Origin: Candidatus Sulfomarinibacteraceae bacterium
GTDB taxonomy: Bacteria > Acidobacteriota > Thermoanaerobaculia > Thermoanaerobaculales > Sulfomarinibacteraceae
Assembly (NCBI GenBank): GCA_963715955.1
Contig: CAVQSQ010000024.1
Coordinates: 7,139-71,138, forward strand
Direction of reading: 5' to 3'
DNA: 64,000 nt
In this document: piece after piece, positions 2,235 to 62,925 of the stretch
Layout of the letters: each line of letters begins with the position of its first letter
Position numbering within the stretch: the first letter of the stretch is position 1
Made by a program: the position numbers and the translations under genes
The notes under the pieces: generated by a model
What the model was told of the DNA's origin: nothing
Database searches by the model: none
Seen by the model: the letters and a program-made list of their open reading frames with translations, nothing else

Positions 2235-2276
2235 CGAATTCCGAATTCAAAATTCAAAGTTCAAAATTCAAAATTG
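2235..2276. repeat. Heptanucleotide tandem array, 6 units (CGAATTC x2, AAAATTC/AAAGTTC x4)
   Basis: Exact 7-bp period was read directly. The array lies 5 nt past the pmbA stop codon (minus strand) and upstream of ychF. Confidence 0.85.
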
Positions 2277-2281
2277 TGTCT

Positions 2282-3634
2282 CTACCCCACCACCGGTTGG
2301 CTGCGGACGAGGATCGACGGCGCGCCGATGAACCCCTGTTGGGTCTGAAACCAGCGGCGGTCGTTGCCCACGGCCTCGATGCGTCGCAGGAGCCGCCCGA
2401 GGCTGCCCTGAAGCTCGACCACCGGGTGCCAGCCGCGAACCTGCGGACCGTCGAGCCACACCCCGGAGGCGATCATCCGGTAGCGGTCGGCGGCAAAATC
2501 GACCTCGATCTCCGCCAACGGCCGCAGGAGGTAAAGGGCGTGATCGGCCGAACCCAGAAGCTGCGCTGCGGCCACCCCGGCGCGAGAGTCCACCACCAGG
2601 TTGGCGGCGCCGGTGGCCGGGTAGTCGCGGTAGGACACCCTCAACGCACCGCCGCGGGCGGGCTCCGAACAGCGCGTCGCGTCGCGGAACGACGCCAGCC
2701 GGTAGCGCGGGACACCCTCGTCGAGGAGGACCGTCCGACGGGAGGGGAAGCCTTCGCCGTCGCACGGCCCGGTGATCGGGGCCTGCGGATCGCAGCGGTC
2801 GTCGACCAGCGTCAAGGCCGGCCCCGCCAGTCGACCGTGGGAGTCCAGCAGCGCCGACAGGTGGTCCTCTTCTTCGCGAACCGCCGAAAAAAGCGGCGAG
2901 ACGGCGGCCAACAACTGGGCGGCGACCTCGGGGTGGAGGATCAGATCGCGCAGACCGGAATCGGTGGCGACGCGGCGCCGGATGAGCAGCGCGCGGTCGG
3001 TGATCTGCGCCGCCGCCGCTTCGAGGTCGAAGGTCTGGGGATCGTCGATGTGCAACCAGTCGCGCCACACGCCCGCCCGTTCGCCCACCACCTCCACCTC
3101 GGCCATGAGCGAGGTGCCGGCGTCCTGGTGCCGGGCGACCCAGCCGTCGCCGGTGACCAGGACCCACGCGTAGTGGCCCTCCTGCAGGACCGCGCGTCGC
3201 AGCCGCAGGTGGCCCGCGCCGAGGCTCGCCACCGCCCGGTCGAGTTCCTGACCGGCGTGGGTCGCCCATCCCTTGGCCGGCAACTCGCGTGGCGCCCGGG
3301 TCTCGGTGAGACCGAGCAGACGCTCCGGCGGCAGGGGGTCGGCCGCGAGCGGCGTCGCGTTGTCGAGGGCGGCGTTGACGGCGCGCCGGGAGGCGTCCTC
3401 TTCGAGCCCGGAGGCAGCGGCGAAGCCGGCCCGGTTGTCGTCCCAGACCCTGATTGCGACCCCGGTCTCTTCGATTTCGAGGACCCGCAGAGGCTGGCCC
3501 GAGGCGACGGCAACTTCGCGCGACATCGACGCCTTGGCGAAGACCTCCCAGCGGGCGGTGCCGGCGGCGTCGAGCCGGGTGCGGGCAGCGGCGGTGGTGG
3601 CGTGGAGGCGTTCGAGGTGATCGGGCCCGGCCAT
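2282..3634 (-). CDS. pmbA: TldD/PmbA-family protein lacking the HExxxH motif (PmbA/TldE-like)
   Basis: Its ATG overlaps the upstream gene's stop as ATGA at 3632-3636. The translation is family-like (GFAAASGLEE..., C-terminal GFIGAPSILV). Confidence 0.7.
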   Translation of the reverse strand: MAGPDHLERLHATTAAARTRLDAAGTARWEVFAKASMSREVAVASGQPLRVLEIEETGVAIRVWDDNRAGFAAASGLEEDASRRAVNAALDNATPLAADPLPPERLLGLTETRAPRELPAKGWATHAGQELDRAVASLGAGHLRLRRAVLQEGHYAWVLVTGDGWVARHQDAGTSLMAEVEVVGERAGVWRDWLHIDDPQTFDLEAAAAQITDRALLIRRRVATDSGLRDLILHPEVAAQLLAAVSPLFSAVREEEDHLSALLDSHGRLAGPALTLVDDRCDPQAPITGPCDGEGFPSRRTVLLDEGVPRYRLASFRDATRCSEPARGGALRVSYRDYPATGAANLVVDSRAGVAAAQLLGSADHALYLLRPLAEIEVDFAADRYRMIASGVWLDGPQVRGWHPVVELQGSLGRLLRRIEAVGNDRRWFQTQQGFIGAPSILVRSQPVVG

Positions 3635-4935
3635 CACAGAACCTCCAGCCGGTCCACCAGCAGGCTCGGCGCTTCGGACCCGGTCGGCAGCGGCACGCCG
3701 TCCTTGACGCACCATCCCAGCCGCCAGTCGGGGGTCAGGTCGCTGCCGATCCGCGGGTCGATGTTGGCGAGCGTTTCGAGAACGTTGCCGGTGAGCTCGC
3801 ACGGGGCCAGGGGCCGACGGCGGCGGCCGTGTCGCACCTCCCACCCGCGCTCGACCCTGAGCACGATGCGTAAGGACAACGGGTCCACCGTCGCACCACC
3901 GAGGCGCGTCACGACCAGGGCGTGTTCGAGGTCGGCTTCGAGATCCTGGGGGGGCGTCGCCCCGGGCGCGATCACGAGATTCGACAGGCGGGCGACAGGC
4001 GGCAGCGACCACGCGGCGCGCCGCCCCCGCCCGGCGTCGCAGCGCAAACTGGGTCCGCCTTCCCGGTCACACAGAAAACCCTCGAACCGGCCGTTGCGGA
4101 TGAGCGTGACGGGTGCGGCGCGCACTCCTTCGTCATCGTAGTCGAAGCTCCCTGGGAGGTCGGTGCGGGTCGGGTCGTCGACGACCTCGAGACCGGCGCA
4201 CGTCACCGTGGCCCCGAACAACTCCGTGAGCGGCGACCCGCCGCCCCTCGCCAGGTCCGATTCGGCCATGTGGCCGACCGCTTCATGAAGCAAGACGCCG
4301 GCGGTGCCGTCGGTGAAGAGAACCGGCAGCCGCGTGCCGGCCGGCGCGGTCCAGGCCTTGGCGGGATTCTCCTCGAGCAGCTTTTCAATCCAGGTGGTGA
4401 GCTGTGGGTGGCCCCACACCGCCAGAAGGGACGAGGACGCATCCCCCCGGCGCTCGACCCTGACCAGAGCGGGGGTCGAAATCGGTGTCCAACCCTCGGC
4501 GCGGACGACGGCTGCGCGCCGGCTGATGTAGCGCACCACGCCGCGAAACGGGGCCAACCGTTGCGCCAGGCGGCGGGCCCAATCCTTCCACACTCGGGGC
4601 GGGTCCATCTCGGGTGCGGGGATCAACCGCGTCGACGGCATCGGCACCCGGTCGGCGTGGCGGGCGAGCAGCTCGCCGATCGCCGCCGTCGACATTCCGG
4701 TGCGGGCGTGGAGCATGACCCGGGAGGGCGACCTCCACCGCGCGGCCACGCCCTCGAGCCGACACGTCTCGACCTCGAACTCGCCGGCCGTGACGGCCGC
4801 CTTGAGCTCCAGGCGTTGCTCGAGGTACAGATCCTCGAAGCGGGCGCCGCCGCCTCGCAGCTCGCCGCAGTTTTCCGACAAGAGGTCCAGCCATCTCGCA
4901 TCGAGCGGTGGTTCGGGTCGCGGTTGGCTTCGCAC
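3634..4935 (-). CDS. tldD: Metalloprotease TldD
   Basis: HEAVGH zinc motif and the GSFDYDDEG segment are present. A GTG start at 4935 was chosen because the upstream part of the 678-aa ORF overlaps pccB antisense. The start is uncertain. Confidence 0.75.
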
Positions 4936-5016
4936 GTCGACATGGTACCTGTATCTCAGGCCACGGTAGAATGCACGGGGCCCCTGCCCGGCAGGTCGCG
5001 CCCCGAGGGAGGTCCC

Positions 5017-6564
5017 ATGAGCCGCGAGGTCGTTGATCGTCTTTCCAGGCGGCTGGCCGCCAACCGACTCGGTGGCGGTGAGGACAAGATCGAACGCCAG
5101 CACCAACAGGGCAAGCTGACGGCCCGTGAGCGCGTCGAGCAGTTTCTCGACGAGGGCACATTTGCGGAGACCGACGCGATGGTCGAGCACGGGTGCACCG
5201 ACTTCGGTATGGCCGACCGCCGGACCCCCGGCGACGGCGTGGTCGCCGGCCACGGCCGGGTCAACGGCCGGCCGGTCTTCGTCTTCGCCCAGGACTTCAC
5301 GGTGTTCGGCGGGTCGCTCTCCGAGGCCAACGCCGCCAAGATCTGCAAGATCATGGATCTGGCGATGAAGGTCGGGGCGCCGGTGGTCGGGCTCAACGAC
5401 TCCGGCGGCGCCCGCATCCAGGAGGGAGTGGCTTCGCTGGCGGGTTACGCCGACATCTTCCTGCGCAACACTCTGGCCTCGGGGGTGGTGCCGCAGATCT
5501 CGGCGATCATGGGTCCCTGCGCCGGCGGCGCGGTCTACTCGCCGGCGATCACCGACTTCGTGTTCATGGTCGAGGACACCTCCTACATGTTCGTCACCGG
5601 GCCGGAGGTCATCAAGACCGTCACCCACGAGGAGGTCACCAAAGAAAAGCTCGGCGGCGCCATGACGCACAATTCAGTCTCCGGAGTGGCGCACTTCGCA
5701 TCGAGGGGCGATACCGAGTGCCTTGCCCAGATCCGGAAGCTCCTTTCCTACCTGCCCTCCAACAACTCGGAACGGCCGCCGGTCGCAGACAACTCGGACC
5801 CCCTCGACCGCGAGATTTCAGAACTCGACGATTTCGTCCCGGCCGACCCCAACAAGCCCTACGACATCACCAAGCTGATTCGCTGGGCAGCCGACGACGG
5901 CGATTTTCTAGAGGTCCACGAGCATTTCGCGAAGAACCTGGTGGTCGGCTTCATCCGGCTCGGCGGGCACCCGGTCGGGGTCATCGCGAACCAACCGGCC
6001 TTCCTCGCCGGAGTGCTCGACATCAACGCCTCGGTCAAGGGCGCGCGTTTCGTCCGTTTCTGCGATGCCTTCAACATCCCGCTGTGGATCGTCGAGGATG
6101 TGCCCGGCTTTCTGCCGGGGACCGAGCAGGAGTGGGGCGGCATCATCCGCCACGGCGCCAAACTGCTCTTCGCGCTCGCCGAGGCCACCGTCCCCAAGGT
6201 CACCGTCATCACCCGCAAGGCCTACGGCGGCGCCTACTGCGTGATGGGATCCAAGCACATCCGCACCGACCTCAACCTCGCCTTTCCGACCGCCGAGATC
6301 GCGGTCATGGGCCCACAGGGTGCGGTCAACATCCTCTACCGCGAAGAGATCGCCGGGGCCGCGGACCCCGAGGCCGAGCGCGCGCGGCGGGTGGCGGAGT
6401 ACCAGAAGCTCTTCGCCAACCCCTTCGTGGCCGCCGAACGCGGCTATATCGACGATGTCATCATGCCCAGAACCTTGCGGCGCAACCTGGTGACGGCCTT
6501 TGCCATGCTGCAGACCAAACGCGACACCATGCCGGCGAAGAAGCACGGGAATATACCCTTGTAG
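5017..6564 (+). CDS. pccB: Propionyl-/methylmalonyl-CoA carboxyltransferase beta subunit
   Basis: ATG is preceded by GAGGGAGG. Motifs include [37 protein letters not shown] and [13 protein letters not shown]. Confidence 0.9.
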
Positions 6565-6627
6565 GAGTGTTGAGTTTTGAGTTATGAGTTTTGAGTTAGG
6601 AATTAGGAATTTGGAATTAGGAATGGC
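6565..6627. repeat. Heptanucleotide tandem array, 9 units (GAGTKTT/GAGTTAK/GAATTAG/GAATTTG)
   Basis: Starts on the first base after the pccB TAG stop. Strict 7-bp register was read directly. Confidence 0.85.
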
Positions 6628-6644
6628 ATCCACTCACTCAGTTC

Positions 6645-6679
<35 letters not shown>

Positions 6680-6735
6680 CTCACCCGTCCCGGTAGGGTT
6701 CAGAGGAACGTCTGCTGTTGGGCTGGAGTCGACCG

Positions 6736-8253
6736 ATGAAACTGCTGATCGCCAATCGGGGGGAGATCGCGGTGCGGATCATCCGCGGGTGCCGGGAGAT
6801 GGGGATCAACACGGTCGCGGTCTACTCCGAGGTCGACCGGGGCGCGCCCCACGTCCTGATGGCCGATCAGTCGTTTCCGATCGGCCCGGCGGAGGCCTCG
6901 AAGAGCTACCTCAACATCGACCGTCTGCTCGAGGTGGCGGCTGCAAGCGGCGCCGACCTCCTCCACCCGGGCTACGGTTTCCTGGCCGAAAACGCCGACT
7001 TCGCGGAACGGGTCGAGGCCGCGGGCGTGACCTGGGTCGGGCCGCCGCCGGCGGCGATGCGGCTGATGGGCTCGAAGACCGAGTCGCGCAAGCTCGCCGT
7101 CGCCTCGGGGGTGCCGCTGATCCCCGGGTTGATGGAGCCCATCGTGGAGATGTCCCAGCTCGAGGCCTTCGTCGACGAACACGGGCTGCCGGTGCTCTTG
7201 AAGGCCGTGGCAGGCGGTGGTGGCAAAGGCATGCGCGCGGTTTCGGAGCGCGGCGAACTCGCAAACGCCTGGGAGCGCGCGTGCTCCGAGGGCCAGGCGT
7301 ACTTCGGCGACCCCCGCGTCTATGTGGAACGGCTGGTCGATCGCGCGCGCCACGTCGAGATCCAGGTGGCGGCCGACCGCGACGGCAACGCCGTGTACGT
7401 CGGTGAACGGGAGTGCTCGATCCAGCGCCGCCACCAGAAGGTGGTCGAAGAATGCCCGTCGCCGGTGGTCGGGCCCGATCTGCGCCGCCGCATCGGTGAG
7501 GCAGCCCTCGCCCTCGTCAAGGCGTCGGGCTACCACTCGGTTGGTACGGTGGAGTTCCTTCTCGATCCCGACGGCCACTTCTACTTTCTCGAGATGAACA
7601 CTCGTTTGCAGGTGGAGCACCCGGTGACCGAAGAGGTCTACGGCGTCGACCTGGTCGTCGAGCAGATCAACCTCGCACTCGGCAAACCGCTTTCGCTGCG
7701 ACAGGAGGACCTGGTGCCCAGGGGCCACGCCATCGAGTGCCGGATCTACGCCGAGGACCCGCTGAGGAACTTCGCCCCGTCGCCGGGGAAGATCACCCTC
7801 TACGTGCGGCCCGCGGGGCCAGGGGTGCGGGTCGACTCCGGGGTGATCGCGGACAGCGTCGTGCCCCTCGACTACGATCCCATGCTGGCCAAGCTCGTGG
7901 TGTGGGCTCCGGACCGCGAAGCCGCGGTCAGCCGGTTGAAGCGGGCGCTGTCGGAGTACCAGGTGAGCGGGGTCTCCACCACTCTGACCCTGTTCAGGGC
8001 ACTGGTGGAGATGGATGCCTTCCGCGACGCCGATTTTCACACCGGATTCCTCGATCAGTTGCTGGCCTCGGGAGGGCTTGCGGAACTGCACGGACGCCAG
8101 GACCCGGAAGCGGAGATCGCGGCCGCCATCGCCGCGGCCTGCCTGGCCACAACCGAGGCGGGGGGGCTGCCCGATGATCTCTTTGCCCACGGTGAGAACA
8201 GCACGTGGTGGACCGACGGCAATCGGGTGGCGCGGGGGAGGTTTCCACGATGA
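6736..8253 (+). CDS. accC: Biotin carboxylase subunit of acyl-CoA carboxylase
   Basis: MKLLIANRGEIAVRIIR N-terminus, ATP-grasp segments (HPGYGFLAEN, GGGGKGMR) and EMNTRLQVEHPVTE. Confidence 0.9.
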   Translation: MKLLIANRGEIAVRIIRGCREMGINTVAVYSEVDRGAPHVLMADQSFPIGPAEASKSYLNIDRLLEVAAASGADLLHPGYGFLAENADFAERVEAAGVTWVGPPPAAMRLMGSKTESRKLAVASGVPLIPGLMEPIVEMSQLEAFVDEHGLPVLLKAVAGGGGKGMRAVSERGELANAWERACSEGQAYFGDPRVYVERLVDRARHVEIQVAADRDGNAVYVGERECSIQRRHQKVVEECPSPVVGPDLRRRIGEAALALVKASGYHSVGTVEFLLDPDGHFYFLEMNTRLQVEHPVTEEVYGVDLVVEQINLALGKPLSLRQEDLVPRGHAIECRIYAEDPLRNFAPSPGKITLYVRPAGPGVRVDSGVIADSVVPLDYDPMLAKLVVWAPDREAAVSRLKRALSEYQVSGVSTTLTLFRALVEMDAFRDADFHTGFLDQLLASGGLAELHGRQDPEAEIAAAIAAACLATTEAGGLPDDLFAHGENSTWWTDGNRVARGRFPR

Positions 8254-8753
8254 AGTGGGTCATCCGTGGCGGCGAGGCGGAGCGCTCAATCGATGTGCAA
8301 CGGCACGGTGAGGTCTTCGAAATCACGGTTGACGGTGCGCCGCGCCAGGTGGAGTTGGTGCGGCTCGACGGGTCCTTTGCCTCGCTCCGCTACCCCGACA
8401 GCGGGCGCAGTTTTCAGATCACCTACCAGCACCACGCCAACGGCAGCTGGCGGGTGGGCGTGGGGCAACGGGAGTTCGACCTTTCGGTGCTTTCCCCTGC
8501 GGAGGCTGTCGAAGCGGTCAGCGGTGGGCGCGAGAGCGGTCCGAGCCGCCTGACGGCGCCGATACCCGGCAAGGTTGTGGCGGTCAAGGTGGCGCCGGGG
8601 GACGAGGTGGTGTCCGGCCAGTCGCTGGTGGTGCTCGAAGCCATGAAGATGGAGAACGAGCTTGCCGCGGAACAGGCCGGACGGGTGGTGGCTGTCCATG
8701 TGGCCTCCGGCGACACGGTGGAAAGCGGTCAGCTGCTGGTGGAAATCGAATAG
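8250..8753 (+). CDS. Biotin carboxyl carrier protein (biotinyl domain with N-terminal extension)
   Basis: ATGA overlap with the accC stop. EAMKMENE biotinylation motif near the C-terminus. Confidence 0.8.
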   Translation: MKWVIRGGEAERSIDVQRHGEVFEITVDGAPRQVELVRLDGSFASLRYPDSGRSFQITYQHHANGSWRVGVGQREFDLSVLSPAEAVEAVSGGRESGPSRLTAPIPGKVVAVKVAPGDEVVSGQSLVVLEAMKMENELAAEQAGRVVAVHVASGDTVESGQLLVEIE

Positions 8754-8853
8754 GTAACCCTCTGCGGCGGCTCGCCGTATATCAGAGTGTTACCAGCGGC
8801 GTGAAAGAAGACGTCTCCTCGCCGGCTGGTTGTTCGGGCGCCAGCATCGACCT

Positions 8854-10569
8854 ATGAAGAGAATCAGAGCATCCCTGCTGTTGGTGGTGTCGGCGGCCGC
8901 GGCCGGCCGGCTCTCGGCACAGGTGCCGCCCACGCCTCCGGCGGGCACGATCGCGGCGGAGATACAGGATCGCCACGATGAAACGTCGACCCACGGCGGG
9001 GTGGTCGATGTCACCGCCGTCAGCACCACCCTGATCGCGTTCGACGCCAACGGGCATCCCGTGTTCGACCTCCGCCCCGACGAACTGCTGGTGCTCGAAG
9101 ACTACAAGCCGGTCCGCCTGCTCGGTCTCGAACACGGCGTTGGACCGGTGACGGCCTCCGCACCCGGTGCCCCGACTCGAGAAACCTCCAGGCCGCGGCC
9201 CGCGGCCAAGGTGGACGCAACGCCGTGGCGGGTTGTGGTTTATGTCAGCACCGAGCTTGCCGGTCGATTCGTGCTGCGAACCCTGTGCCGGCAGACGGCG
9301 GACAACGCCGCCCGCCTGACCGCCCTCGGACCGGTCGACGTGGTCCTGGCGGACCCGACCCCGACCTTGATGAGCGAAGCGGGCAGCCGTGCGGAAGACG
9401 TCGAGGCGGCGTTGAACCGTCTCGCACACGAAGCCTCCGGGGCGACCACGGTTGATGCGATCCGCAACGCCTTTACGCGCGAGTTCACGCCGGGAGTGGG
9501 CTTCAACGTTTCCTACACCATCACCCAGTCGAGCCCGACGACGGTCGCGGCCAAAGCGCGGTCGTCGATCCACCGCGAGCGCGCGATCATCCGCGGTGAG
9601 CTCGACCGTTTGGTGGCCTGGCTGCAGTCGCAGCCGCCGGCCTCGCGCGGCCTGCTGCTGTGGATGACCGGTGGATTCGACCTCAACCCCTCGGACTTCT
9701 ACATCCCGTTGGTGTCGCAGGTCGATTCGTACATGGCGGCAAAGATGCGCACCGACTATGCGGCCTTGAGTCTGGAAAGCGATGTGCGGCGGGTCGTGGA
9801 AGTGGCGCTCGCCTACGGCTGGACGGTGATGCCCGTCAACGCGATCCACACCACCTTCGCTTACGGTGCCGATGTCCCAGGCACCGGGAAATCCCAACAT
9901 CACTTGGGAGTCGGCGCAGGTTCGGTCGACGCCCAGCAGAGCGACTTTCAGCAGGTGGCCCCCAGCTATCCGCTTCAGATCATGGCCGGCGCGACGGGCG
10001 GCGAGCTGATCGCCAACAACAACCAGTTCGGTCCGGCCCTGGACCTCCTTTCGGGCGCCTACTTCGTCACCTATCAGGCCGATCGGCCCGCGGACGGCAA
10101 GCTGCACCCGTTGGAGATCCGCTGTACCCGCCCCGGGGTGAGATTGCGCGCCCGTCAGTTCGCGGCTTCGGGGAGTCTGCGCGGCGTCTCCACCACCCGC
10201 GCTCGGCGGGTCCTTGGCGGTGAAGACCTCGCCGGCGGTCTCGGGATCTCGGCGGCGGTGGTGAACATCTCGCGACCGACCAAGGGACTGCAGGCCGGCG
10301 ATCTCAGAGTGACCGCCGCTCTCGAGGGGCTCCGCGGCACCTTGCAGCCGCTCGATCTCGGGGAGATGCGGATCACCCTGGTGGTGGATACCGGCAGCGG
10401 TTCGCCGTTCGTCAGCCACCAGGAGTTTCCGATCGAATGGGACGACGTCGGCGAGAGCTGGCAGTACGGTTCCGGATTCCGATGGCCGAAGAAAGCCCAC
10501 CGCGTCGCGGTCGTGGTCGAAGAGCTCGTGACCTCCACCTGGGGCGCCGCCGTCATCGAGCTCGATTGA
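8854..10569 (+). CDS. Secreted VWA-domain protein (acidobacterial VWFA-related type)
   Basis: Signal peptide MKRIRASLLLVVSAAAAG. N-terminal motif VDVTAV..FDANGHPVFDLRPDELLVLEDYKPVRL is typical of this family. Paralog at 17624..19393. Confidence 0.55.
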   Translation: MKRIRASLLLVVSAAAAGRLSAQVPPTPPAGTIAAEIQDRHDETSTHGGVVDVTAVSTTLIAFDANGHPVFDLRPDELLVLEDYKPVRLLGLEHGVGPVTASAPGAPTRETSRPRPAAKVDATPWRVVVYVSTELAGRFVLRTLCRQTADNAARLTALGPVDVVLADPTPTLMSEAGSRAEDVEAALNRLAHEASGATTVDAIRNAFTREFTPGVGFNVSYTITQSSPTTVAAKARSSIHRERAIIRGELDRLVAWLQSQPPASRGLLLWMTGGFDLNPSDFYIPLVSQVDSYMAAKMRTDYAALSLESDVRRVVEVALAYGWTVMPVNAIHTTFAYGADVPGTGKSQHHLGVGAGSVDAQQSDFQQVAPSYPLQIMAGATGGELIANNNQFGPALDLLSGAYFVTYQADRPADGKLHPLEIRCTRPGVRLRARQFAASGSLRGVSTTRARRVLGGEDLAGGLGISAAVVNISRPTKGLQAGDLRVTAALEGLRGTLQPLDLGEMRITLVVDTGSGSPFVSHQEFPIEWDDVGESWQYGSGFRWPKKAHRVAVVVEELVTSTWGAAVIELD

Positions 10570-10661
10570 CCGCCCCCCGGGCTTTTCCGGGCCCGGGTTC
10601 GGGGTGCGGGCCTGTTCGGCTGAGAACGCTCCGACGGGGTCAGTGGTAGACTCTCCGACCA

Positions 10662-11651
10662 GTGATTTCACCCAGGTTGTTCGGATTATTGATTGCCCTC
10701 GGCAGCGCACTCGTGTGCGCGGTGGTGGTCACTGCCGAGGGTTCGGATGGGGCATCCGACTCGGCGGTGACGCCACCATGCGTGCTCGAGCTCGTGTACG
10801 AGCCCTTTGCGGGACTCGTCCTGGTTTCGGTGACCATCAATGGATCGCAGCCGATGGATTTCGTACTCGATTCCGGGGCCACCCAGAGTTCGATTACCGA
10901 TCCGTACCTGGCCGCCGCCCTTGGTCTTGAAGTGGTCGAGGGCGGGTTCGCCCGCGGCATGGGCTCGGGCGCGACACAGGTCCTGATCGCCGATGACACC
11001 TCGGTTCGAGCCGACGGCATCGAGGTGCTCCACGGGCCGCTGGTTGTGCACGACATCGGCGTTCGTCTGTCGGCGACGGCGGGCCGCGACATCGATGGTT
11101 TTCTCGGCGCTGATTTCTTCGAGCGCTGGGTGGTGGAAATCGATCCTTCGAGCCGTCGTCTGCTCCTTCACGATCCGGAGACCCTGGTCGACTTCCGTGG
11201 AGGCGAGGTCCTCGCCCTCGAGGTAATCGACCGGCGACCGGTGGTCGAAGCGGAGGTCGTGACCGAGGTCGGGAAGAAACCGCTGCCCGTGCGGCTGGTC
11301 GTGGATACGGGCTCGAGCCGCTACCTCACCCTGATCAACGGTTCTCGAAGGCGTCTGAGACCGCCACCGGAACGATCGCTCGGGGCTTCGATAGGAGTGG
11401 TGGGTGAAACCCTGGTGACGGTTGCTCCGGTGGCACAGCTGACGGTCGGGACTCAGGTCACCACGAACCTCGAGACCGCTTGGATGGAGTCGTACCAGAT
11501 ACCGGCTGTGCGCAATATCCCGAACCTCAACGGGATCCTCGGCAATGCACTTCTGAGCCGATTTCGGTCGGTGATCGACTGCCCCCACGGGCGGCTGATT
11601 ATCGGTGGGGCGTTCGGATTTTCGGATGCCACGAACGAGATATGGGATTAG
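10662..11651 (+). CDS. Secreted retropepsin-like aspartyl protease, two-lobed
   Basis: N-terminal hydrophobic signal. Two D-S/T-G motifs are present (VLDSGATQS and VVDTGSSR). Confidence 0.5.
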   Translation: MISPRLFGLLIALGSALVCAVVVTAEGSDGASDSAVTPPCVLELVYEPFAGLVLVSVTINGSQPMDFVLDSGATQSSITDPYLAAALGLEVVEGGFARGMGSGATQVLIADDTSVRADGIEVLHGPLVVHDIGVRLSATAGRDIDGFLGADFFERWVVEIDPSSRRLLLHDPETLVDFRGGEVLALEVIDRRPVVEAEVVTEVGKKPLPVRLVVDTGSSRYLTLINGSRRRLRPPPERSLGASIGVVGETLVTVAPVAQLTVGTQVTTNLETAWMESYQIPAVRNIPNLNGILGNALLSRFRSVIDCPHGRLIIGGAFGFSDATNEIWD

Positions 11652-11855
11652 ATGGCGAGAATAGCCTCGCCGGGACTCCTGTGGTCGGCCTGAATACTGG
11701 CATGGAGATTGCGGACGAAGAACCCGGGAATTTGTTTCTAAAAGGTGTATGAGACTTCCAGAACGCAAGGGAAAGGAGGACGAAGGTCACGAAAGGGGTT
11801 GGACGTTGGATTCCTCGCCCCCCAAGAGAAGAGAACGGATTCAAGGAGGAAAGGT

Positions 11856-14834: not shown

Positions 14835-14861
14835 TCAGGCAGGTTTTTCCAGCCGTTTCAC

Positions 14862-14886
14862 GGGGGCCTTCGGGCCCCCGTTTTTT
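14862..14886 (+). terminator. Rho-independent terminator of the receptor gene
   Basis: GGGGGCC-TTCG-GGCCCCC stem-loop followed by G + TTTTTT. Confidence 0.75.
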
Positions 14887-14929
14887 GGTCGCGACTCACC
14901 AGGTCGACCGTCCAACTGCATAGGGTAGA

Positions 14930-17377
14930 ATGACCGCCATGTCGCGACGTAATCTCGTTGTTGTTGCAGCCCTGGTGGGGTTGATTCTGGGTCCTTTGTG
15001 GGCCACCGTTCTCTGGGTGCCTGACGACGGGACGGTGTGGATCTGGTCTCCCGATACCGGGGAACTCCGGGTCCCGGATCGCGGTCTCTCCCTCGTGCCA
15101 AGATGGTCTGGGCGACGGATGGCGGGATCCGAGCTCGTGGCCGAGATCCCGGCCGCCACCTCGGACGGGGCCAGGGTCGGGACGGCGATTATCTTGCGTC
15201 CGCCGGTGGGTGTGTGGCGGCTGGCCGCGGCACCTTCCCCAGAGGAGGGTTTTCGCCGCGGGATCGCCGACGTCGTGCGCGCTGATATTGGCCGCCTTCC
15301 TCTCGACTGTCTCACCCAGGGGGATTCGCAGGCTGGCTGTCCCGACGATACGGACCTTGCATTGCGGCGATCTGTTGCCCTGGCGCTCGGTGTGCCCGAG
15401 GGCGCGGTGGAGGCGGCAATAGAGCCGCAGGATGATGCGGTACGGTCGCGGTTATTGGCCGAGATTGCCGAACGGCTCGACCTGCCGCAGAGAAGAGTGT
15501 TGATTCTGGGTCTCGACGGGCTCGACTGGGACCTGGTTCTGCCGTGGGTGGAGGCGGGCCGTATGCCGAATCTCAAACGGTTGATGGATGCCGGAACCTG
15601 GGGCGTGATGGAAACCGTCGTACCGATTCTGTCGCCGCTCATCTGGACCACCATCGCCACCGGGGCGTCCGCTGATATCCACGGCGTGCTCGATTTTGTT
15701 GAAACCGATCCGGAAACCGGCGGTCTGGTGCCGGTGTCCGGCCGCAGTCGCAAGATACCCGCGGTCTGGAACGTGGCATCCGCGCTCGGCCTCGAGGTGG
15801 GCGTTGTCGGCTGGTGGGCGACCTGGCCGGCAGAGCGGGTCAACGGCACGTTCGTCTCCGACCGCCTCTACTACACCCTGCAGCAGGGCGTCCCCGAGGA
15901 GACCTTCCACCAGGACCCGCCGGATCTCATCTTCCCGCCCGAAAGGACTGCCGAGTTCTCCTCGTTGCGCGATCGGGCGGTCGGCGAGACGGACTGGCGG
16001 GCGATTCGTCACTTCATGAACGTCTCCGAGACGGCCTTCGACCGGGCGGTGGCGGCGAATCGCGGCATGGAAGACCCCATCGACGGAATGCGCCGCATCG
16101 TCAGCGCCACCCGAACCTACATGGGGTCGGGCATGGTGCTGGCCGAGGACCGGCCCGATCTGTTGATGGTGTATCTCGAGGGGACCGATACCATCGGCCA
16201 CCTCCTCGCGCCCTACATGCCGCCGCCGACTCTGGATGTCGATCCCGCCGAGGCCTCGCTGTACGCGGCCGCCGTGCCCACCTATTTCGAAGTCACAGAC
16301 CGTTGGATCGGAAGATATCTGGAGAAGTGCCCGTTGGAGGAATACGCGGTGATCGTGGTCTCGGACCACGGTTTCAAGTGGTCGAAAGATCGCCCCCGCG
16401 GAGTTTCGGGGACCTTTGGAGCGACGGCGCCCTTGTGGCATGCCGACGATGCGATCTTCGTCGTGGCCGGGCCCGATGTGGAGGGCCGCGGTCGCGTCGA
16501 GGGCCGGGCCTCCGTCTACGACGTGGCGCCGACCACGGCGGCGCTGCTCGGCATCCCGGGTGATCCGGGTTGGCACGGTTCGGTGCTGCCCGGCGCGCCG
16601 CCGGCCACGGTAGAACCGGTCCAGTGGATGACGCTGGCGCCGCCTGCAACCTACAGCCAGGGCGGCGGCGGCGTGACGGCGGTGGATCCCGAGTTCATCG
16701 CCAAGTTGAAGGCCCTTGGCTACATCGGAGAAGACGGCACCAGCGCGGGCGGCGTAACGCCGGCGTTGCCTGAGCCGACGGAGACCGTTCCGACCTCGAG
16801 TCAGGACAACATGACCAAGGGTCAACTCAACAACCTCGCCGTGATCAAGATCAATGAGAAGAAGTACGACGAGGGCGAGCGCCTGCTGCGGCAGGCGATC
16901 GCGGAAAACCCGAACTATCCCTCGCCGCACTACAATTTGCGCCGCCTCTACATGGAGACCGAGCGGTATGAACGGGCTGATGAGGAGCTCTGGAAAGCCA
17001 TCGACAAGGGATTCAGGGACCCGGAGAGAACGCTCGACCGGGTGGCGGCCGATTACGAGACCATGCGGATGCCGGAGCGCGCCGACGGGTTGCTCACGCG
17101 TGCCATCGCGCGCTTCCCCGAACACGAGCCGTTCTACGTCCATCTGATGGTCATTCGGGTGCGAGAGGGGCGTTTCGAGGAGGCCCTGCCGGTTGGGGCA
17201 ATCGCCACAGAGAAATTCCCCGGCAGCGGACCGGTGCACGCCTTTTACGGTTTGGCTGCGGCCAGCGCCGGTCAGGCGGACCTGGCGCGCCGCGAGATCG
17301 AAAAGTCGCTGGCCATCAATCCCAATCAACCGATGCTGCGCGAAGCACTCGGTCAGCTGCCGCCGGCTGGAAGATAG
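14930..17377 (+). CDS. Membrane-anchored alkaline-phosphatase-superfamily (type I phosphodiesterase/nucleotide pyrophosphatase-like) protein with C-terminal TPR repeats
   Basis: N-terminal TM helix. VLILGLDGLDWDL..MPNLKRL..SPLIWTTIATG core and VVSDHGF segment. C-terminal TPR helices. Confidence 0.7.
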   Translation: MTAMSRRNLVVVAALVGLILGPLWATVLWVPDDGTVWIWSPDTGELRVPDRGLSLVPRWSGRRMAGSELVAEIPAATSDGARVGTAIILRPPVGVWRLAAAPSPEEGFRRGIADVVRADIGRLPLDCLTQGDSQAGCPDDTDLALRRSVALALGVPEGAVEAAIEPQDDAVRSRLLAEIAERLDLPQRRVLILGLDGLDWDLVLPWVEAGRMPNLKRLMDAGTWGVMETVVPILSPLIWTTIATGASADIHGVLDFVETDPETGGLVPVSGRSRKIPAVWNVASALGLEVGVVGWWATWPAERVNGTFVSDRLYYTLQQGVPEETFHQDPPDLIFPPERTAEFSSLRDRAVGETDWRAIRHFMNVSETAFDRAVAANRGMEDPIDGMRRIVSATRTYMGSGMVLAEDRPDLLMVYLEGTDTIGHLLAPYMPPPTLDVDPAEASLYAAAVPTYFEVTDRWIGRYLEKCPLEEYAVIVVSDHGFKWSKDRPRGVSGTFGATAPLWHADDAIFVVAGPDVEGRGRVEGRASVYDVAPTTAALLGIPGDPGWHGSVLPGAPPATVEPVQWMTLAPPATYSQGGGGVTAVDPEFIAKLKALGYIGEDGTSAGGVTPALPEPTETVPTSSQDNMTKGQLNNLAVIKINEKKYDEGERLLRQAIAENPNYPSPHYNLRRLYMETERYERADEELWKAIDKGFRDPERTLDRVAADYETMRMPERADGLLTRAIARFPEHEPFYVHLMVIRVREGRFEEALPVGAIATEKFPGSGPVHAFYGLAAASAGQADLARREIEKSLAINPNQPMLREALGQLPPAGR

Positions 17378-17623
17378 CTGTCAGCCGTTTGCTATTGGCC
17401 ATGAGCTCGGCATCAAAGACCCGCGGCGATCACAGCGGGCGGTATGCATGCCGCCCCTGCCGGAGAAGCGGCTCGGAGTAGAAGGGGTTGGGAAATTCGG
17501 CCCAACTCTTCTCAAAGACGTGGGCGGGTCCTTCAGGATCCGCGCTCGGACGCCGAATTCAGCTGTCGGAGAATTTCTCGCCCGCCTGGTCCTGAATTCT
17601 CCAGGAGCCTGCGCCAACTGCTC

Positions 17624-19393: not shown

Positions 19394-19430
19394 CTCCTCG
19401 GTGAGTCTAGCAAAACCCAGCCTCCGGCCG

Positions 19431-19472
19431 GATACAGGTCTCAGGATTCAGGATGCAGGATCCAGGATCCAA
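19431..19472. repeat. Heptanucleotide tandem array (GATNCAG x6), inverted relative to 19525..19608
   Basis: Read directly: gatacag gtctcag gattcag gatgcag gatccag gatccaa. Confidence 0.8.
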
Positions 19473-19491
19473 GTTTCACCGCAATAGGCCC

Positions 19492-19519
19492 TTGACAAAC
19501 AGGGAGTGGGTTTTACGAT
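19492..19519 (+). promoter_or_regulatory. Sigma70-like promoter candidate for the ECF sigma gene
   Basis: TTGACA (19492-19497), 16-nt spacer, TACGAT (19514-19519). The predicted start falls at the first unit of the CTGCATC array. Confidence 0.4.
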
Positions 19520-19524
19520 CTCAG

Positions 19525-19608
19525 CTGCATCCTGCATCCTGCATCCTGCATCCTGCATCCTGCATCCTGCATCCTGCATCCTGCACCCTGCATCCTGCAT
19601 CCTTCATC
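19525..19608. repeat. Heptanucleotide tandem array (CTGCATC x12; 10 perfect, 2 single-base variants)
   Basis: Counted unit by unit. Lies 66 nt upstream of the ECF sigma ATG. The reverse complement reads (GATGCAG)12. Confidence 0.9.
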
Positions 19609-19674
19609 CAGGCAACCCCCACGCCCCGAATCCGTATCCCATTGGATGGCGCCCTTGTTGCCGCGGTATGATCG

Positions 19675-20259
19675 ATGGCCGTGACCGGAAAGATCGAGAA
19701 GCTGTCGGACGAGAACCTGGTCGAGCTCGCTCTCGATGGCGATGAGGATGCCTACGGCGTGCTCGTACGCCGCTACCAGCGCCGCCTGACGGCGTTTCTC
19801 GGGCAACTGGTCGGCGACATCGAACTCGCGCGCGAGCTTTCGCAGGAGGCCTTCATCCGCGCGTGGTCGGCCCTGGCGAGATTCGATCCCCGCTACCGCT
19901 TTTCGACCTGGCTGTTCAGAATCGCTCACAACCTGGGCATCGACCACCTCCGGCGGCGGCGTCTGAAAACCGTGGGTCTGTACCGGACGGACTCGGACGG
20001 TGATGAGGTCGAGGTGGTGGTTGCCGACCTCGACAAGGACCCCCTCGGTCACCTCGAAAACAGGGTTCTCGCCGAGGAGCTGCATCAGGTCATCGACGAT
20101 TTGCGGCCCGAGTATCGCGAACTGGTTCTGCTGCGTCATTTCGGCGGGCTCAGCTATCAGGAGATCGCCGAGTTCAAAGACATGCCCCTGGGCACGGTGA
20201 AGAACAAACTTTTTCGAGCCCACTCCGTATTACGTACAGCGTTGGCCGCTTTCCTGTAG
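19675..20259 (+). CDS. ECF-family RNA polymerase sigma factor
   Basis: Region 2 (YQRRLTAFL..ELSQEAFIRAW..FSTWLFRIAHNLGIDHLRRR) and region 4 (LRHFGGLSYQEIAEFKDMPLGTVKNKLFRA). Confidence 0.85.
   Translation: MAVTGKIEKLSDENLVELALDGDEDAYGVLVRRYQRRLTAFLGQLVGDIELARELSQEAFIRAWSALARFDPRYRFSTWLFRIAHNLGIDHLRRRRLKTVGLYRTDSDGDEVEVVVADLDKDPLGHLENRVLAEELHQVIDDLRPEYRELVLLRHFGGLSYQEIAEFKDMPLGTVKNKLFRAHSVLRTALAAFL

Positions 20260-25367: not shown

Positions 25368-25370
<3 letters not shown>
24633..25370 (+). CDS. fabG: 3-oxoacyl-ACP reductase
   Basis: VITGGARGIG, NNAGITRD, YAASKAG SDR catalytic motif, NISGGLYI end. Confidence 0.9.
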
Positions 25371-25416
<46 letters not shown>

Positions 25417-25494
25417 TGCCCACCGACTCCCGGATCAGGTCGAGGGTGGGGAGTCTGAAGCGACGGACGGCCTGACGAGGTTTTTTCGGGTGGT

Positions 25495-28891: not shown

Positions 28892-28996
28892 CCTCACTGC
28901 TGTCCCGGACGAATCTCGATGTGACCCTGCGACACTGAAGACGACTGTCCACGTCTCGTTCGGAGACATCGCGGATCCAGGCCGCAGGATACAGCT

Positions 28997-29074: not shown

Positions 29075-29121
29075 ACCGCAGCGGTTGGGTGGAGCCCGGA
29101 ACTCAACTCGAGCCGTTTCCT

Positions 29122-35872: not shown

Positions 35873-35890
35873 GTCCGCCTCCTGGACATC

Positions 35891-45667: not shown

Positions 45668-45782
45668 CCGGCGCTGAAAGGTTCCCGGCACTGCTTTGCA
45701 GAACAATGGTGTTCAGTCGACTACCGTGGAAACGGGGTGGGCGGCGAAAGCACTCTCTCGCCCGATGGGCTACGCTATGACA

Positions 45783-45822
45783 GCAATTCGCCTCGGCTGC
45801 GAACGCAGCCGAGGCGAATTGC
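45783..45822 (-). terminator. Perfect 18-bp stem hairpin immediately 3' of tRNA-Ala
   Basis: GCAATTCGCCTCGGCTGC-GAAC-GCAGCCGAGGCGAATTGC abuts the tRNA CCA end. Confidence 0.5.
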
Positions 45823-45898
<76 letters not shown>

Positions 45899-46014: not shown

Positions 46015-46113
46015 GGAAGCGCATGGGGCCTGGTGGCTTCCGCGGACTTCAAATCCGTTGGGCCGGCCTCAGTAGGGTCGGTCGGAGGGTTCGATTCCCT
46101 TGCGCTTCCGCCA
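46015..46113 (+). tRNA. selC: tRNA-Sec (selenocysteine, anticodon TCA)
   Basis: 8-bp acceptor GGAAGCGC/GCGCTTCC + G + CCA. 6-bp D stem with 4-nt loop. Anticodon loop CTTCAAA. Long variable arm. 5-bp T stem GAGGG/CCCTT (8+5 geometry). Close parallel to the E. coli selC layout. Confidence 0.9.
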
Positions 46114-55092: not shown

Positions 55093-56649
<1,557 letters not shown>

Positions 56650-57654: not shown

Positions 57655-57923
57655 TGTGGAGCGAAGTTTATCCCATTCCTCCCCTGCCACGTCCGCCGTC
57701 TGTGGTCGGCCTCCCATCGTTCCTCCGGGGTCGGTATCCCGATTCTCTCGGCGTTGGTGCCCGTGAGTGCCCCCCTCGAGGATGTTTGCGACCGCAGTGT
57801 CTACGTGTGTCGAGGTCTCGTGATCGCAAAATCCTCGAGGACGGCACGTCCGGTGGATGCGAGCGGTCTCCCTTTCCCCCTTGCTCCCTTGCTCCTCTGC
57901 CCCTCTGCCCTATACTGACTCCC

Positions 57924-61303: not shown

Positions 61304-61306
61304 CCC

Positions 61307-62041: not shown

Positions 62042-62592
62042 AGGACGTCCTGACCGATGTTGAAAAACGGATGGCTTCCGCGGTCGAGGCCTATCAGCAC
62101 GAGTTGGCGAAGCTGCGAACCGGCCGCGCCTCGCTGGCGGTGGTGGACGGAATCCAGGTCGACTATTACGGCGTCCAGACCCCGCTCAACCAGGTTGCGA
62201 CGCTGTCGGTTCCTGATCCGTCGACCATCACCATTGCGCCCTGGGAACCGAAAGTGCTGGCAGAGGTCGAAAAGGCGATTCTGCGCTCCAACCTCGGCCT
62301 CACACCCAACAACGACGGGCGGGTCATTCGCCTCAATATCCCGGCGCTCACCGAGGACCGCCGCAAAAGCCTCGTCAAGGTTGCCCACGAGGTCGCCGAG
62401 GGCTCCCGCAATTCGATCCGCCAGGTCCGGCGCGATGGCAACGACCGCTTCAAGCAGATGGAGAAGGACAAAGAGATCTCCGAGGACCAGATGCACGACG
62501 GTCAGGAGCAGGTTCAGAAGCTGACCGACACCTACATCGAGAAGATCAACACGATCCTCAAGAAGAAAGAGACCGAGATCCTCGAGGTCTGA
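62038..62592 (+). CDS. frr: Ribosome recycling factor
   Basis: ATGA overlap with pyrH. LRTGRAS..L..I.VDYYG, IPALTEDRR. Confidence 0.95.
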   Translation: MKDVLTDVEKRMASAVEAYQHELAKLRTGRASLAVVDGIQVDYYGVQTPLNQVATLSVPDPSTITIAPWEPKVLAEVEKAILRSNLGLTPNNDGRVIRLNIPALTEDRRKSLVKVAHEVAEGSRNSIRQVRRDGNDRFKQMEKDKEISEDQMHDGQEQVQKLTDTYIEKINTILKKKETEILEV

Positions 62593-62624
62593 CACCCGGG
62601 GCTGTGGGCTGTGGGCTATGAGTT

Positions 62625-62823
62625 GAGCTTCTTGCAATATTCAATGCGGGCGGGGATAAACCCCGCCCCTACGGTTTTCAGACACGCGGACGGGGTTGAG
62701 ACAAACCTAGCCCTTGCAGGCACATGCCGTCCTCAAAGTCGTAGGGGAGGGGTTTATCCCCTCCCATTCGGGTCTTTCTGTGCCGCGATTCTTCTGACCT
62801 GCGGATGTTTTTGCAAGAGGTTT
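62625..62823. repeat. MITE/REP-like composite element: same TIR family as 36040..36120, with two inverted copies of the GC hairpin
   Basis: GAGCTTCTTGCAA (62625-37) pairs with TTGCAAGAGGTTT (62811-23). GCGGGCGGGGATAAACCCCGCCCCTAC (62646-72) is the reverse complement of the 36070 core. The variant GTAGGGGAGGGGTTTATCCCCTCCC spans 62741-65. Confidence 0.65.
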
Positions 62824-62890
62824 AGCTGTGAGCTGTGACCCAACCTCCGCGTCTGATCAGGATGGCTTTCCCCAAGGCTCGGTATCAGAC

Positions 62891-62925
62891 AATTCAAAAT
62901 TCAAAATTCAAAATTCAAAATTGTG
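62891..62925. repeat. Heptanucleotide tandem array (AATTCAA x4 + AATTGTG)
   Basis: Read directly. The last unit contains the in-frame TTG (62921) proposed as the ispD start. Confidence 0.85.

Follow-up and report, generated by a model that had tools for sequence, protein, structure and literature searches.

A 64,000-nucleotide (nt) stretch of DNA from a Candidatus Sulfomarinibacteraceae bacterium (contig CAVQSQ010000024.1 of assembly GCA_963715955.1, positions 7,139 to 71,138; hereafter the window) carries, in the gaps between its genes, a family of tandem arrays with a period of seven nucleotides. These arrays can be identified with high confidence as heptanucleotide long simple-sequence repeats (LSSRs) of the short tandemly repeated repetitive (STRR) type, which have been amplified among relatives of Ca. 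Sulfomarinibacteraceae within Thermoanaerobaculia. Repeats of this kind are already known, and only the lineage is new. Comparison of orthologous gaps suggests that some of the repeat blocks are kept by selection, and those blocks are probably RNA elements at gene junctions; for the arrays in general we tentatively propose a function at the level of the transcript, as elements placed between one gene and the next. A sequence-only reading of the window had recognised the family, its intergenic location, its adjacency to stop codons and its common orientation, all of which stand, but its view of where heptad arrays are known was too narrow and its account of array anatomy incomplete. Absent from it are blocks of about five heptads, arms that form inverted pairs, a polar C-rich flank, and the persistence of arrays at the same positions while their unit turns over.

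Tandem Repeats Finder (TRF) and direct reading of the sequence recover every array of the earlier list. The heptanucleotide period is upheld: of the periods from 4 to 12 it is essentially the only one at which three or more units follow each other without a mismatch, and the window contains five such perfect runs of 31-61 nt. No run of 21 nt or more appears in 200 local shuffles and about 1e-5 is expected from base composition, so that chance does not explain the arrays, which form a real family. None lies within coding sequence as defined by a codon-usage gene caller trained on the window and by Pfam matches of the scanned open reading frames (ORFs). The window has a G+C content of ~65% and its arrays range from 12% to 58%, with six of the eight at 12-41%. 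Four arrays had been placed 0-6 nt after the stop codons of pccB, fabG, an hldC-like gene and pmbA; these stop positions check out, and the sense-strand unit is GA(R)TTNN in every one of the four arrays. Two further remarks, that some units place a GGA trinucleotide every 7 nt and that 21 bp equal two helical turns, are correct but bring no explanatory leverage.

The wider census covers the window and 23 related loci (given L-numbers, e.g. L001, L201, L259), 467 kb in total, of which 85% is coding. The nearest genomes are metagenome-assembled genomes (MAGs) of Ca. Sulfomarinibacteraceae/Thermoanaerobaculia (Acidobacteriota), with proteins 88-96% and DNA 86-92% identical to those of the window, and nucleotide alignments to these relatives are interrupted exactly at the array-bearing gaps. 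With a minimum of 3.5 copies, TRF counts 41 arrays of period 7 (47 at a lower threshold), seven of period 6 and no more than two of any other period. Between 44 and 46 of the 47 period-7 arrays are intergenic, in DNA that is mostly coding. Their density is about one per 10 kb, and they occupy ~14% of gaps of at least 60 nt, against about one long array per 190 kb in a 3.2 Mb comparison sample of other bacteria. The lineage is therefore heptad-rich, in the manner of Nostoc or Xanthomonas.

Placement relative to genes is not random, as the alternative entertained in the sequence-only reading would have it. In eleven cases the distance between array and stop codon is 6 nt or less, where 1.95 are expected from uniform placement within gaps (Poisson p ~6.5e-6), a count inflated by orthologous loci that collapses to ~5-7 independent loci against ~1 expected. 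At start codons the census shows no significant excess (3 versus 2.3 expected). TAG makes up nine of the 13 stops within 12 nt of an array, again inflated by orthologues, as against 20% of all stops (TGA 68%), a bias that fits the stop forming part of a TAG-bearing unit. In places the arrays themselves supply the stop or the start codon. Per kb there are 0.72 arrays where the flanking genes are co-directional, 0.56 where they diverge and 0.20 where they converge, and this minimum in convergent gaps indicates that the arrays are not primarily terminators. G outnumbers C on the plus strand over most of the window, with a cumulative skew that climbs from end to end, suggestive of a single direction of replication; array orientation flips with gene direction, not with replication strand. 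About 11 of 13 unpaired stop-proximal arrays are G/T-rich in the sense direction, but as this amounts to ~6 versus 2 independent loci the preference is not significant. Each genome has its dominant unit, GAATTCG at three loci of the window and GATTTCG at no fewer than eight sites in MFD relatives, and three genomes share the imperfect array GAGTGTTGAGTTTTGAGTTATGAGTT at loci that are not orthologous.

Block anatomy and the arrays of the window

Perfect runs at period 7 fall into two length classes, the longer of which peaks at 32-33 nt and corresponds to four units and a partial fifth, or five AT-rich cores. Blocks cluster at 31-35 nt with a modal copy number of 4.4-4.7, and their units are mostly of the GANTTNN family; at periods 5, 6, 8, 9 and 10 run lengths only decay, with no second peak. 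When 185,579 species genomes are searched for GAATTNN x4, at least 120 loci emerge, which among the matches listed fall in Cyanobacteria, Bacteroidota, Ignavibacteria, Acidobacteriota, Chloroflexota, Planctomycetota and others, and the lengths of these arrays from many phyla again show a shoulder at 32-34 nt, with an abrupt drop at 35 nt. We hold the size peak with moderate confidence, part of the loci in the first set being orthologous and the second set being selected by pattern. An origin of the peak in k-mer collapse is ruled out, as it is the same in long-read, k141, SPAdes and isolate assemblies.

Many arrays are arms of potential hairpins. A partner within 400 nt is inverted for 16 of the 47 arrays and direct for four, and 11 units are self-complementary (GAATTCG type). 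Predicted folds are in many gaps far more stable than those of shuffled sequence, with z=-3.4 and -5.2 for window positions 19394-19674 and only -2.0 for the window pccB gap, -4.6 for the pccB gap of L001, -4.4 for L004, -4.0 for the frr gap of L260, -8.0 for L354 and -7.0 for L358. Inverted arrays found 2 kb apart in L259 and L260 are probably a coincidence of the dominant unit and are left out of the structure counts. The motif CCC-N1-2-CCC occurs within 25 nt 3' of the G/T-rich arm in 14 of 46 arrays (e.g. CCCACCCACCC; background 2.7%, p ~9e-12), and the 5' flank of that arm in the same 46 arrays shows no excess of it. This C-box often pairs with a GGGTGGG box that either borders the other arm where it faces the loop or, as at fabG, follows shortly downstream, and the paired boxes are predicted to act as a GC clamp. 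The flank is specific to the lineage, being present at two of 134 arrays elsewhere. The typical element thus runs from a stop codon through G/T-rich heptads, the C-box (CCCNCCC), a loop, sometimes a G-box, and A/C-rich heptads to the downstream gene.

The genes concerned are, from the start of the window, ychF, pmbA and tldD on the minus strand, followed by pccB and accC; a minus-strand gene with a VWA domain, which diverges from the gene of an ECF sigma factor; plsX, fabD, fabG and then a sulfatase-TPR gene; on the minus strand, genes for a heptosyltransferase, an hldC-like cytidylyltransferase and a pfkB kinase; and rpsB, tsf, pyrH, frr and ispD. The arrays and adjoining features are as follows.

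2235..2276, minus strand: heptad array upstream of ychF, found by TRF (2244-2275, AATTCAA x4.6) and direct reading; in sense order CAATTTT GAATTTT GAACTTT GAATTTT GAATTCG GAATTCG
2282-2284, minus strand: stop codon TAG of pmbA, lying 5 nt before the array at 2235..2276 in the sense direction
6562-6564, plus strand: stop codon TAG of pccB, with an array beginning at the next base, 6565
6565..6627, plus strand (TRF 6565-6624): heptad array, GAGTKTT x5 (GAGTTTT) grading into GGAATTW x4 (GGAATTA); 5' arm of an imperfect hairpin with 6645-6679 (the minimum free energy (MFE) fold pairs both arrays, z=-2.0)
6645..6675, plus strand: heptad array, AATTCGG x4.4 with 100% matches; 3' arm of the pccB-accC hairpin
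6676-6693, plus strand: C-rich box GCCGCTCACCCGTCCCGG, directly 3' of the AATTCGG array
6736, plus strand: start of accC, with its own GGAG Shine-Dalgarno sequence
17375..17409, plus strand: degenerate heptads TAGCTGT CAGCCGT TTGCTAT TGGCCAT GAGCTCG, opening with the stop codon TAG of the gene at 15119-17377
19431..19472 (TRF 19430-19471), no strand: array A, imperfect CAGGATN heptads (TRF GGATCCA x6, 78% matches)
19492..19519, plus strand: promoter-like TTGACA-16-TACGAT between arrays A and B, directed toward the ECF sigma gene and matching the consensus at 10 of 12 positions
19525..19609, no strand: array B, CTGCATC x12
25368-25370, plus strand: stop codon TAG of fabG, which is the first triplet of the fabG array
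25368..25414, plus strand: fabG array, TAGTTTT CAGTTTT from 25368, then GAATTCG x4.7 (25382-25414)
25416-25433, plus strand: C-box CTGCCCACCGACTCCCGG, 3' of the fabG array, pairing with the G-box GAGGGTGGGGAGTC at 25442-25455
56109-56107, minus strand: GTG start of the heptosyltransferase gene, ~17-20 nt past the array at 56125..56159 and preceded by an AGGGG Shine-Dalgarno sequence
56125..56159, minus strand (TRF 56126-56157): heptad array, GAATTCG x4.6
56156-56158, minus strand: stop codon TGA of the hldC-like gene, overlapping the first unit of that array
57868..57910, no strand: C-rich array of period 8 (CTCCCTTG-like), immediately followed by a TATACT box (57911-57916) and then a GTG start (57924)
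62599..62838, plus strand: decayed 5' arm of the frr-ispD hairpin, GGCTGTG GGCTGTG GGCTATG AGTT (62599-62624) and AGCTGTG AGCTGTG (62824-62838)
62891..62923, plus strand (TRF 62891-62922): heptad array, (AATTCAA)4AATT, AATTCAA x4.6; 3' arm of the frr-ispD hairpin

Three of these sites were missing from the earlier list, namely 62599-62624 with 62824-62838, 17375-17409, and the period-8 array at 57868-57910. The 17375..17409 site is orthologous to clear TAGCTNT arrays of L201 and L202. Arrays A and B are inverted partners in the divergent VWA/ECF sigma gap, with 52-nt arms that are 79% complementary, and the promoter-like match between them is at chance level (2 found, 1.8 expected). Orthologues of the heptosyltransferase begin M-R-V/I. 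At the 57868 site L259, L260 and L261 carry heptad arrays (GAAATCC; AATTCCG/AACTCCG), which shows that repeat arrays also persist just upstream of a likely promoter.

Several simple identities for the arrays were tried and set aside. At gathering score Rfam recognises only tRNA-Ala and tRNA-Sec in the window, and no family on the arrays. In a scan of positions 1-20000 the arrays at 2235-2276, 6565-6679 and 19431-19609 coincide with no terminator-like site and, with density lowest in convergent gaps, intrinsic termination is rejected. A purpose in providing stops in all three frames holds for TAG- or TGA-bearing units and fails for GAATTCG and GATTTCG. When the window is compared with itself by BLAST, similarity between copies is limited to the arrays, which speaks against their being pieces of a larger mobile element; the possibility raised in the sequence-only reading, that they are fragments of a known one, is unsupported.

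Turnover and persistence at orthologous junctions

Independent assemblies, comprising long-read MAGs and MEGAHIT, SPAdes and JGI contigs, have heptads in the orthologous gaps. In the pccB-accC gap an array lies at the stop codon or within 4 nt of it in the window, L001, L003, L004, L005 and L006; the gap of L002 contains about two units, whereas those of L007 and L009 lack them. Its arms are GGAATTA/AATTCGG in the window, GATTTCG/AAATCCG in L001 (33 of 33 positions paired) and CAATTCT/AGAATTG in L004 (30 of 35), i.e. the arms match within a genome while the unit differs between genomes, and even the degenerate pccB arrays of L003, L004 and L005 retain the period and an AATT core. Turnover is likewise evident in the ECF sigma gap, where the window has CTGCATC x12, L202 has GCATCCA x4 and L206 ~12 units of a GCATCCA array. 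Among ~30 orthologues of the frr-ispD gap many keep the series of frr stop, GAGTTNT heptads, CCCACCC box, loop, AACTCAA/AATTCAA heptads and ispD start. Other clades have the arms CAGTRAT/ACTGATY or ACGGCTNT/AGCTAAY, and in distant orthologues the gap is short and without arrays.

Copy number differs between orthologues by whole units, and the insertions and deletions of the frr-ispD gap are whole heptads, as in the 21-nt insertion in the 3' arm of L259 and L343. For copy-number variation at strain level, exact-protein look-ups of Frr and FabG return no record, and scanning metagenomes for alleles of the fabG gap, its length left free to vary, gives no match. In L201 (~11725-11760) the fabG stop codon is lost, and the reading frame continues for five codons to end at a TGA inside the array.

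Evidence for constraint comes from the array at ispD. The last unit of the 62891 array provides the ispD start codon, TTG at 62921-62923 (plus strand), which has no Shine-Dalgarno sequence; the frame from this TTG gives LCFVCVGAGRGSRFGG, the IspD N-terminus. The sequence (AATTCAA)4AATT is identical, and its copy number constant, in five lineages, those of the window, L339, L340, L342 and L344, whose Frr proteins are 88-97% identical to that of the window. None of its 32 columns varies, as against 22 of the 32 immediately upstream (Fisher p=1.6e-9) and 12 of the 33 that open the ispD coding sequence (p=1.4e-4), so the array is more conserved than the coding sequence it adjoins. The partner 5' arm has decayed in four of the five lineages carrying the invariant array, and in the window it is also split by an insertion of ~190 nt resembling a repetitive extragenic palindrome (REP) hairpin, which is absent from eight orthologues. 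The conserved block is therefore not kept for pairing. It is unpaired in the MFE fold of the window, and forms an A-rich leader running into a TTG start without a Shine-Dalgarno sequence.

Known heptad repeats and other features of the window

Heptad arrays have been known since the work on cyanobacterial STRRs and the 2007 survey of simple repeats, as the latter is represented in later papers. According to these papers (PMC4679880, PMC4692102) heptanucleotides are the most abundant class of LSSR in many bacteria (Mrazek, Guo & Shah 2007), and polymerase slippage is their presumed cause. The arrays of the window have the properties described there, as head-to-tail 7-nt units beyond chance length, in excess at period 7, biased to non-coding DNA, and present at many loci in scattered phyla with slippage presumed. 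The survey, as relayed in the same papers, lists Burkholderia, cyanobacteria, actinobacteria and Xanthomonas, whereas the present lineage belongs to Acidobacteriota, for which our literature search found no description of such arrays. It differs further in its AT-rich units within a 65% G+C genome, five-heptad mode, inverted pairing and polar C-rich flank.

The STRR consensus units are CCCCAGT, TTGGTCA and CAACAGT. None of these occurs among the units of the window (GAATTCG, GAATTAG, GAGTTTT, AATTCAA and CTGCATC), and the relatives of its host are Thermoanaerobaculia (86-92% nucleotide identity), not heterocystous cyanobacteria. The heptamers of cyanobacterial STRRs, Nostoc and Anabaena (GGGGAYT, TTTTGAA, TAACTGA) are similarly non-coding and near starts and stops, and the Nostoc-type loci share GAATTTT (equivalent to TTTTGAA), GAGTTAT and GAATTNN with the present lineage; in Nostoc the TTTTGAA heptads are found near promoters and start codons (bioRxiv 10.1101/2022.06.06.494920). 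They belong to another phylum, and the C-box flank is peculiar to the lineage described here. The earlier comparison with STRRs is thus apt, but heptad arrays are not peculiar to heterocystous cyanobacteria, as Xanthomonas, Beggiatoaceae, Bacteroidetes, Chloroflexus, which carries (GATAGRA)n (PMC6749651), and Geobacter also have them.

Three of these systems are informative in detail. The GGGAATC arrays of Xanthomonas and GGGGAYT arrays of Nostoc prefer a block of four units and adjoin ORF ends, downstream on the coding strand, and they are conserved in position, variable in length, transcribed and in some cases inverted pairs, with no function found (Rehm et al. 2015, PMC4692102). A preferred block size, location at ORF ends, recurrence at the same intergenic sites of relatives despite changes in length and sequence, and some inverted pairs are thus held in common with Xanthomonas. 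Its units, however, are G-rich and quadruplex-forming, whereas those of the present lineage are AT-rich and unable to form quadruplexes, so that a quadruplex explanation of the size preference cannot be transferred to it. In Geobacter metallireducens five tandem heptads (class 3, MTYCTGA) occur as eight opposite-strand pairs, including one between proB and proA, and a further 49 elements consist of four GGACCGG heptads; these were interpreted as regulator sites or RNA elements (PMC2700814). Class 3 matches our arrays in its five heptads (mode 4.4-4.7 here), opposite-strand pairs at variable spacing (16 of 47 inverted here, part of the arrays being unpaired), occurrence within operons and genome-specific unit. 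The unit families and the phylum differ, MTYCTGA not being among those found here, and for Geobacter binding of IHF/HU or a global regulator was proposed, with no bridging of stop and start and no flanking box described. In Beggiatoaceae, TAACTGA occurs in sets of two to six copies directly upstream of starts lacking canonical ribosome binding sites, and a post-transcriptional role with S1, Csp or CsrA as binders has been proposed (MacGregor 2015, PMC4679880). The ispD array is placed likewise, before a start without a Shine-Dalgarno sequence, but Beggiatoaceae have one dominant unit in almost exclusively direct arrays, whereas the present lineage has several unit families, for which the position just after a stop is the commonest. 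Two isolated arrays of familiar type were also encountered. In the Pyrinomonadaceae MAG L062 (9940-9979) an AACTGAT array, equivalent to TAACTGA, lies directly upstream of accC, placing the heptad of Beggiatoaceae, cyanobacteria and Bacteroidetes in an acidobacterium, and in L316 (~11300-11345), a MAG labelled Myxococcales whose PyrH is 59% identical, a GAGTTNT array lies 6 nt after the frr stop, which could reflect convergence, transfer or mis-binning.

A different comparison is with the REP elements of proteobacteria and the bacterial interspersed mosaic elements (BIMEs) and REP doublets (REPINs) built from them, which have ~35-nt hairpin arms of genome-specific sequence in inverted doublets, often just after stops inside operons. 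REP elements stabilise upstream mRNA and can affect translation termination, and they bear a GTAG motif and depend on a REP-associated tyrosine transposase (RAYT). The heptad arrays also form inverted intergenic arms, but these are internally periodic, as REP arms are not, and their loops are not conserved between loci. The GTAG motif is absent from the arrays, and no transposase was found among the part of the window ORFs scanned against Pfam.

Other features lie near the arrays or elsewhere in the window. A separate, GC-rich hairpin family with ends GTAGGCGGG...CCCGCCTAC (GTAG...CTAC), REP/REPIN-like, occurs at 2085-2180, 62648-62765 and 36060-36096, and also in L259 (4430-4870) and L260 (4520-5010), where it swells the hldC gap to ~400 nt; its frr-ispD copy belongs to the window-specific insertion of ~190 nt, and the family is distinct from the heptads. 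An AT-rich repeat of period 11/21 (TAGATTTTTTC) at 35907-35951, at the 5' end of the minus-strand gene 35252-35968, is likewise of another kind. The start context GGTATGATCG is common to the ECF sigma (19668-19680) and sulfatase-TPR (25488-25500) genes, and may represent a TATGAT box overlapping the ATG, suggesting leaderless or near-leaderless transcripts. A perfect 25-nt inverted repeat (28996-29020 and 29051-29075) in the convergent gap of the genes at 28418-28891 (plus strand) and 29122-30246 (minus strand) could be a bidirectional terminator hairpin. A tRNA-Ala(GGC) gene on the minus strand adjoins a 44-nt perfect-like palindrome at 45781-45824 (whole feature 45781-45898), and a tRNA-Sec gene on the plus strand (46015-46113) implies selenoprotein synthesis in the organism. 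Finally ~9 kb (8868-17624), holding a large CarboxypepD_reg/outer-membrane beta-barrel protein, have no counterpart between the syntenic blocks of L001.

Possible action and competing explanations

In the transcript-level role that we tentatively propose, the arrays would arise and change through slippage of whole heptads, the complementarity of their arms being upheld by selection or by template switching within the palindrome, and they would act on the polycistronic transcript. When paired, an AU/GU-rich stem with a GC clamp would draw the stop and start codons together and hide the leader of the downstream gene, and a ribosome that terminates at the foot of the stem, 0-6 nt away, could unwind it, such that translation of the two genes would be coupled or insulated. 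The paired stem may alternatively stabilise the mRNA or be processed, like REP elements. When unpaired, the A/C-rich arm would provide an unstructured leader without a Shine-Dalgarno sequence, as at ispD.

A number of observations weigh against such a role. A complete inverted pair is identical on both strands, and the architecture alone therefore cannot separate an RNA element from a DNA element. Counted with this distinction in view, G.U wobble pairs number 20 in the sense and seven in the antisense direction, but these are non-independent and are accompanied by 40 mismatches of other kinds. Stems often have a regular mismatch in each heptad (e.g. GAGUUAU versus AACUCAA), and several stop-proximal arrays (L003, L005, L006) are without a partner arm. 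Arrays are dispensable at some loci, as the closest relative, L201, has none in the ECF sigma gap and L001 and L204 have none after fabG. Those in divergent gaps upstream of promoter-like boxes (19431-19609 and the 57868 site) fit a role at the DNA level or none. Adjacency to stops, which orthologues inflate and which comes down to the ~5-7 independent loci given above, could arise in part from loss of non-functional spacer DNA and not from a function linked to the stop. Every functional step set out for this uncultured lineage is, moreover, inferred from sequence.

The foremost competing explanation, which is possible if somewhat unlikely, sees the arrays as mutational by-products without function. 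Slippage in AT-rich DNA that melts readily, beside stable GC-rich hairpins or G-rich blocks would generate them, template switching in quasi-palindromes would make their arms complementary, and they would be tolerated between genes. The perfect units, shifts in copy number by whole units, multiplicity of units, occurrence in every type of gap and differing presence among close relatives all conform to this explanation, and the polar C-box/G-box beside the arrays could be a stalling site. A hypothesis of Mrazek (2007), as relayed in PMC4692102 and PMC4679880, further holds that 7 nt matches the DNA segment held by the polymerase. The by-product explanation is more difficult to reconcile with the 32-nt ispD array that is invariant amid varying flanks and coding sequence, with arrays retained in the same gaps over deep divergence, or with stop adjacency six-fold over expectation. 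The size peak at about five heptads is also unlike the decay expected from simple slippage, and a dominant unit in each genome and the imperfect array at non-orthologous loci are equally not anticipated.

It is unlikely that the arrays are instead binding platforms in DNA, at which a nucleoid-associated protein, a global regulator or a heptad reader such as a ribbon-helix-helix repressor modulates nearby promoters. There is precedent for such a reader in the omega repressor of plasmid pSM19035, whose targets are consecutive 7-bp heptads, both direct and inverted. The arrays are the most AT-rich DNA of a 65% G+C genome, arrays A and B flank the promoter-like TTGACA-16-TACGAT, and in four genomes arrays are found directly upstream of a conserved TATACT box. 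Five-heptad pairs in Geobacter have been annotated as putative IHF/HU or global-regulator sites (PMC2700814), and TTTTGAT heptads in the Vibrio cholerae ctx promoter recruit regulators (bioRxiv 10.1101/2021.05.14.444153). Against this, the promoter-like match is within chance, the 7-bp period is out of helix phase, and the many unrelated units in one genome argue against a single sequence-specific binder. Most arrays, besides, are located not at promoters but in co-directional, probably co-transcribed junctions such as pccB-accC and that of the hldC- and waaF-like genes.

Spread of the arrays as miniature mobile elements copied by a transposase, like REPINs or miniature inverted-repeat transposable elements (MITEs), is very unlikely. 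Inverted arms with a spacer in intergenic DNA, a dominant unit peculiar to each genome, the near-identical imperfect array at three non-orthologous loci of three genomes and the attraction of other hairpin repeats to the same gaps are all reminiscent of such elements. However, copies are alike only within the arrays, loops vary between loci, no target-site duplications are seen, the Pfam scan of part of the window ORFs reveals no transposase, and the arrays stay at orthologous sites instead of moving. A role as contingency loci, in which slippage in copy number toggles adjacent genes as in phase variation, is barely plausible: perfect repeats of a unit that is not a multiple of three are typical of phase-variable loci and some arrays abut promoter or start elements (the 57868 site and 62891), but the neighbours are housekeeping genes (pccB/accC, fabG, frr/ispD and lipopolysaccharide core genes), the arrays are outside coding sequences, the copy number at ispD is fixed in five lineages, and published surveys of similar heptads are equally negative (PMC4692102). 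There is next to no likelihood of an assembly artefact, as had been considered in the sequence-only reading, for while assemblers can collapse or create tandem repeats and the narrow 32-34 nt class at first resembles a k-mer effect, the arrays are far shorter than final k-mers or reads and the same junctions carry them in independent long-read and short-read data (long-read MFD contigs, MEGAHIT k141, SPAdes, JGI contigs and isolate genomes).

The transcript-level role can be extended to a more general and speculative proposal, to which we give little credence. Inverted arms of five heptads with a GC clamp would constitute a sequence-independent RNA 'zipper' that evolves by slippage and bridges a stop and the next start, coupling or gating translation over long spacers, and a shift of register by 7 nt would still allow the stem to pair anew. 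A common solution may then lie behind the heptads of cyanobacteria, Xanthomonas, Geobacter and Beggiatoaceae, and the block of ~33 nt that they share would reflect a physical ruler, such as a protein or the ribosome, and not chance.

The value of these data is comparative, in that the same junctions retain arrays over deep divergence while the unit turns over. It also lies in the complementary arms, the size of about five heptads that is seen in other phyla, the lineage-specific C-box, the adjacency to stops and the conserved ispD array. For annotation, the arrays mark the ends of genes. Together the comparisons turn a function previously described as open into specific, testable models. Should the arrays not act in the transcript, the data would still constrain models of slippage and palindrome homogenisation; if they do, they would represent a simple, evolvable means of tuning expression at junctions within operons.

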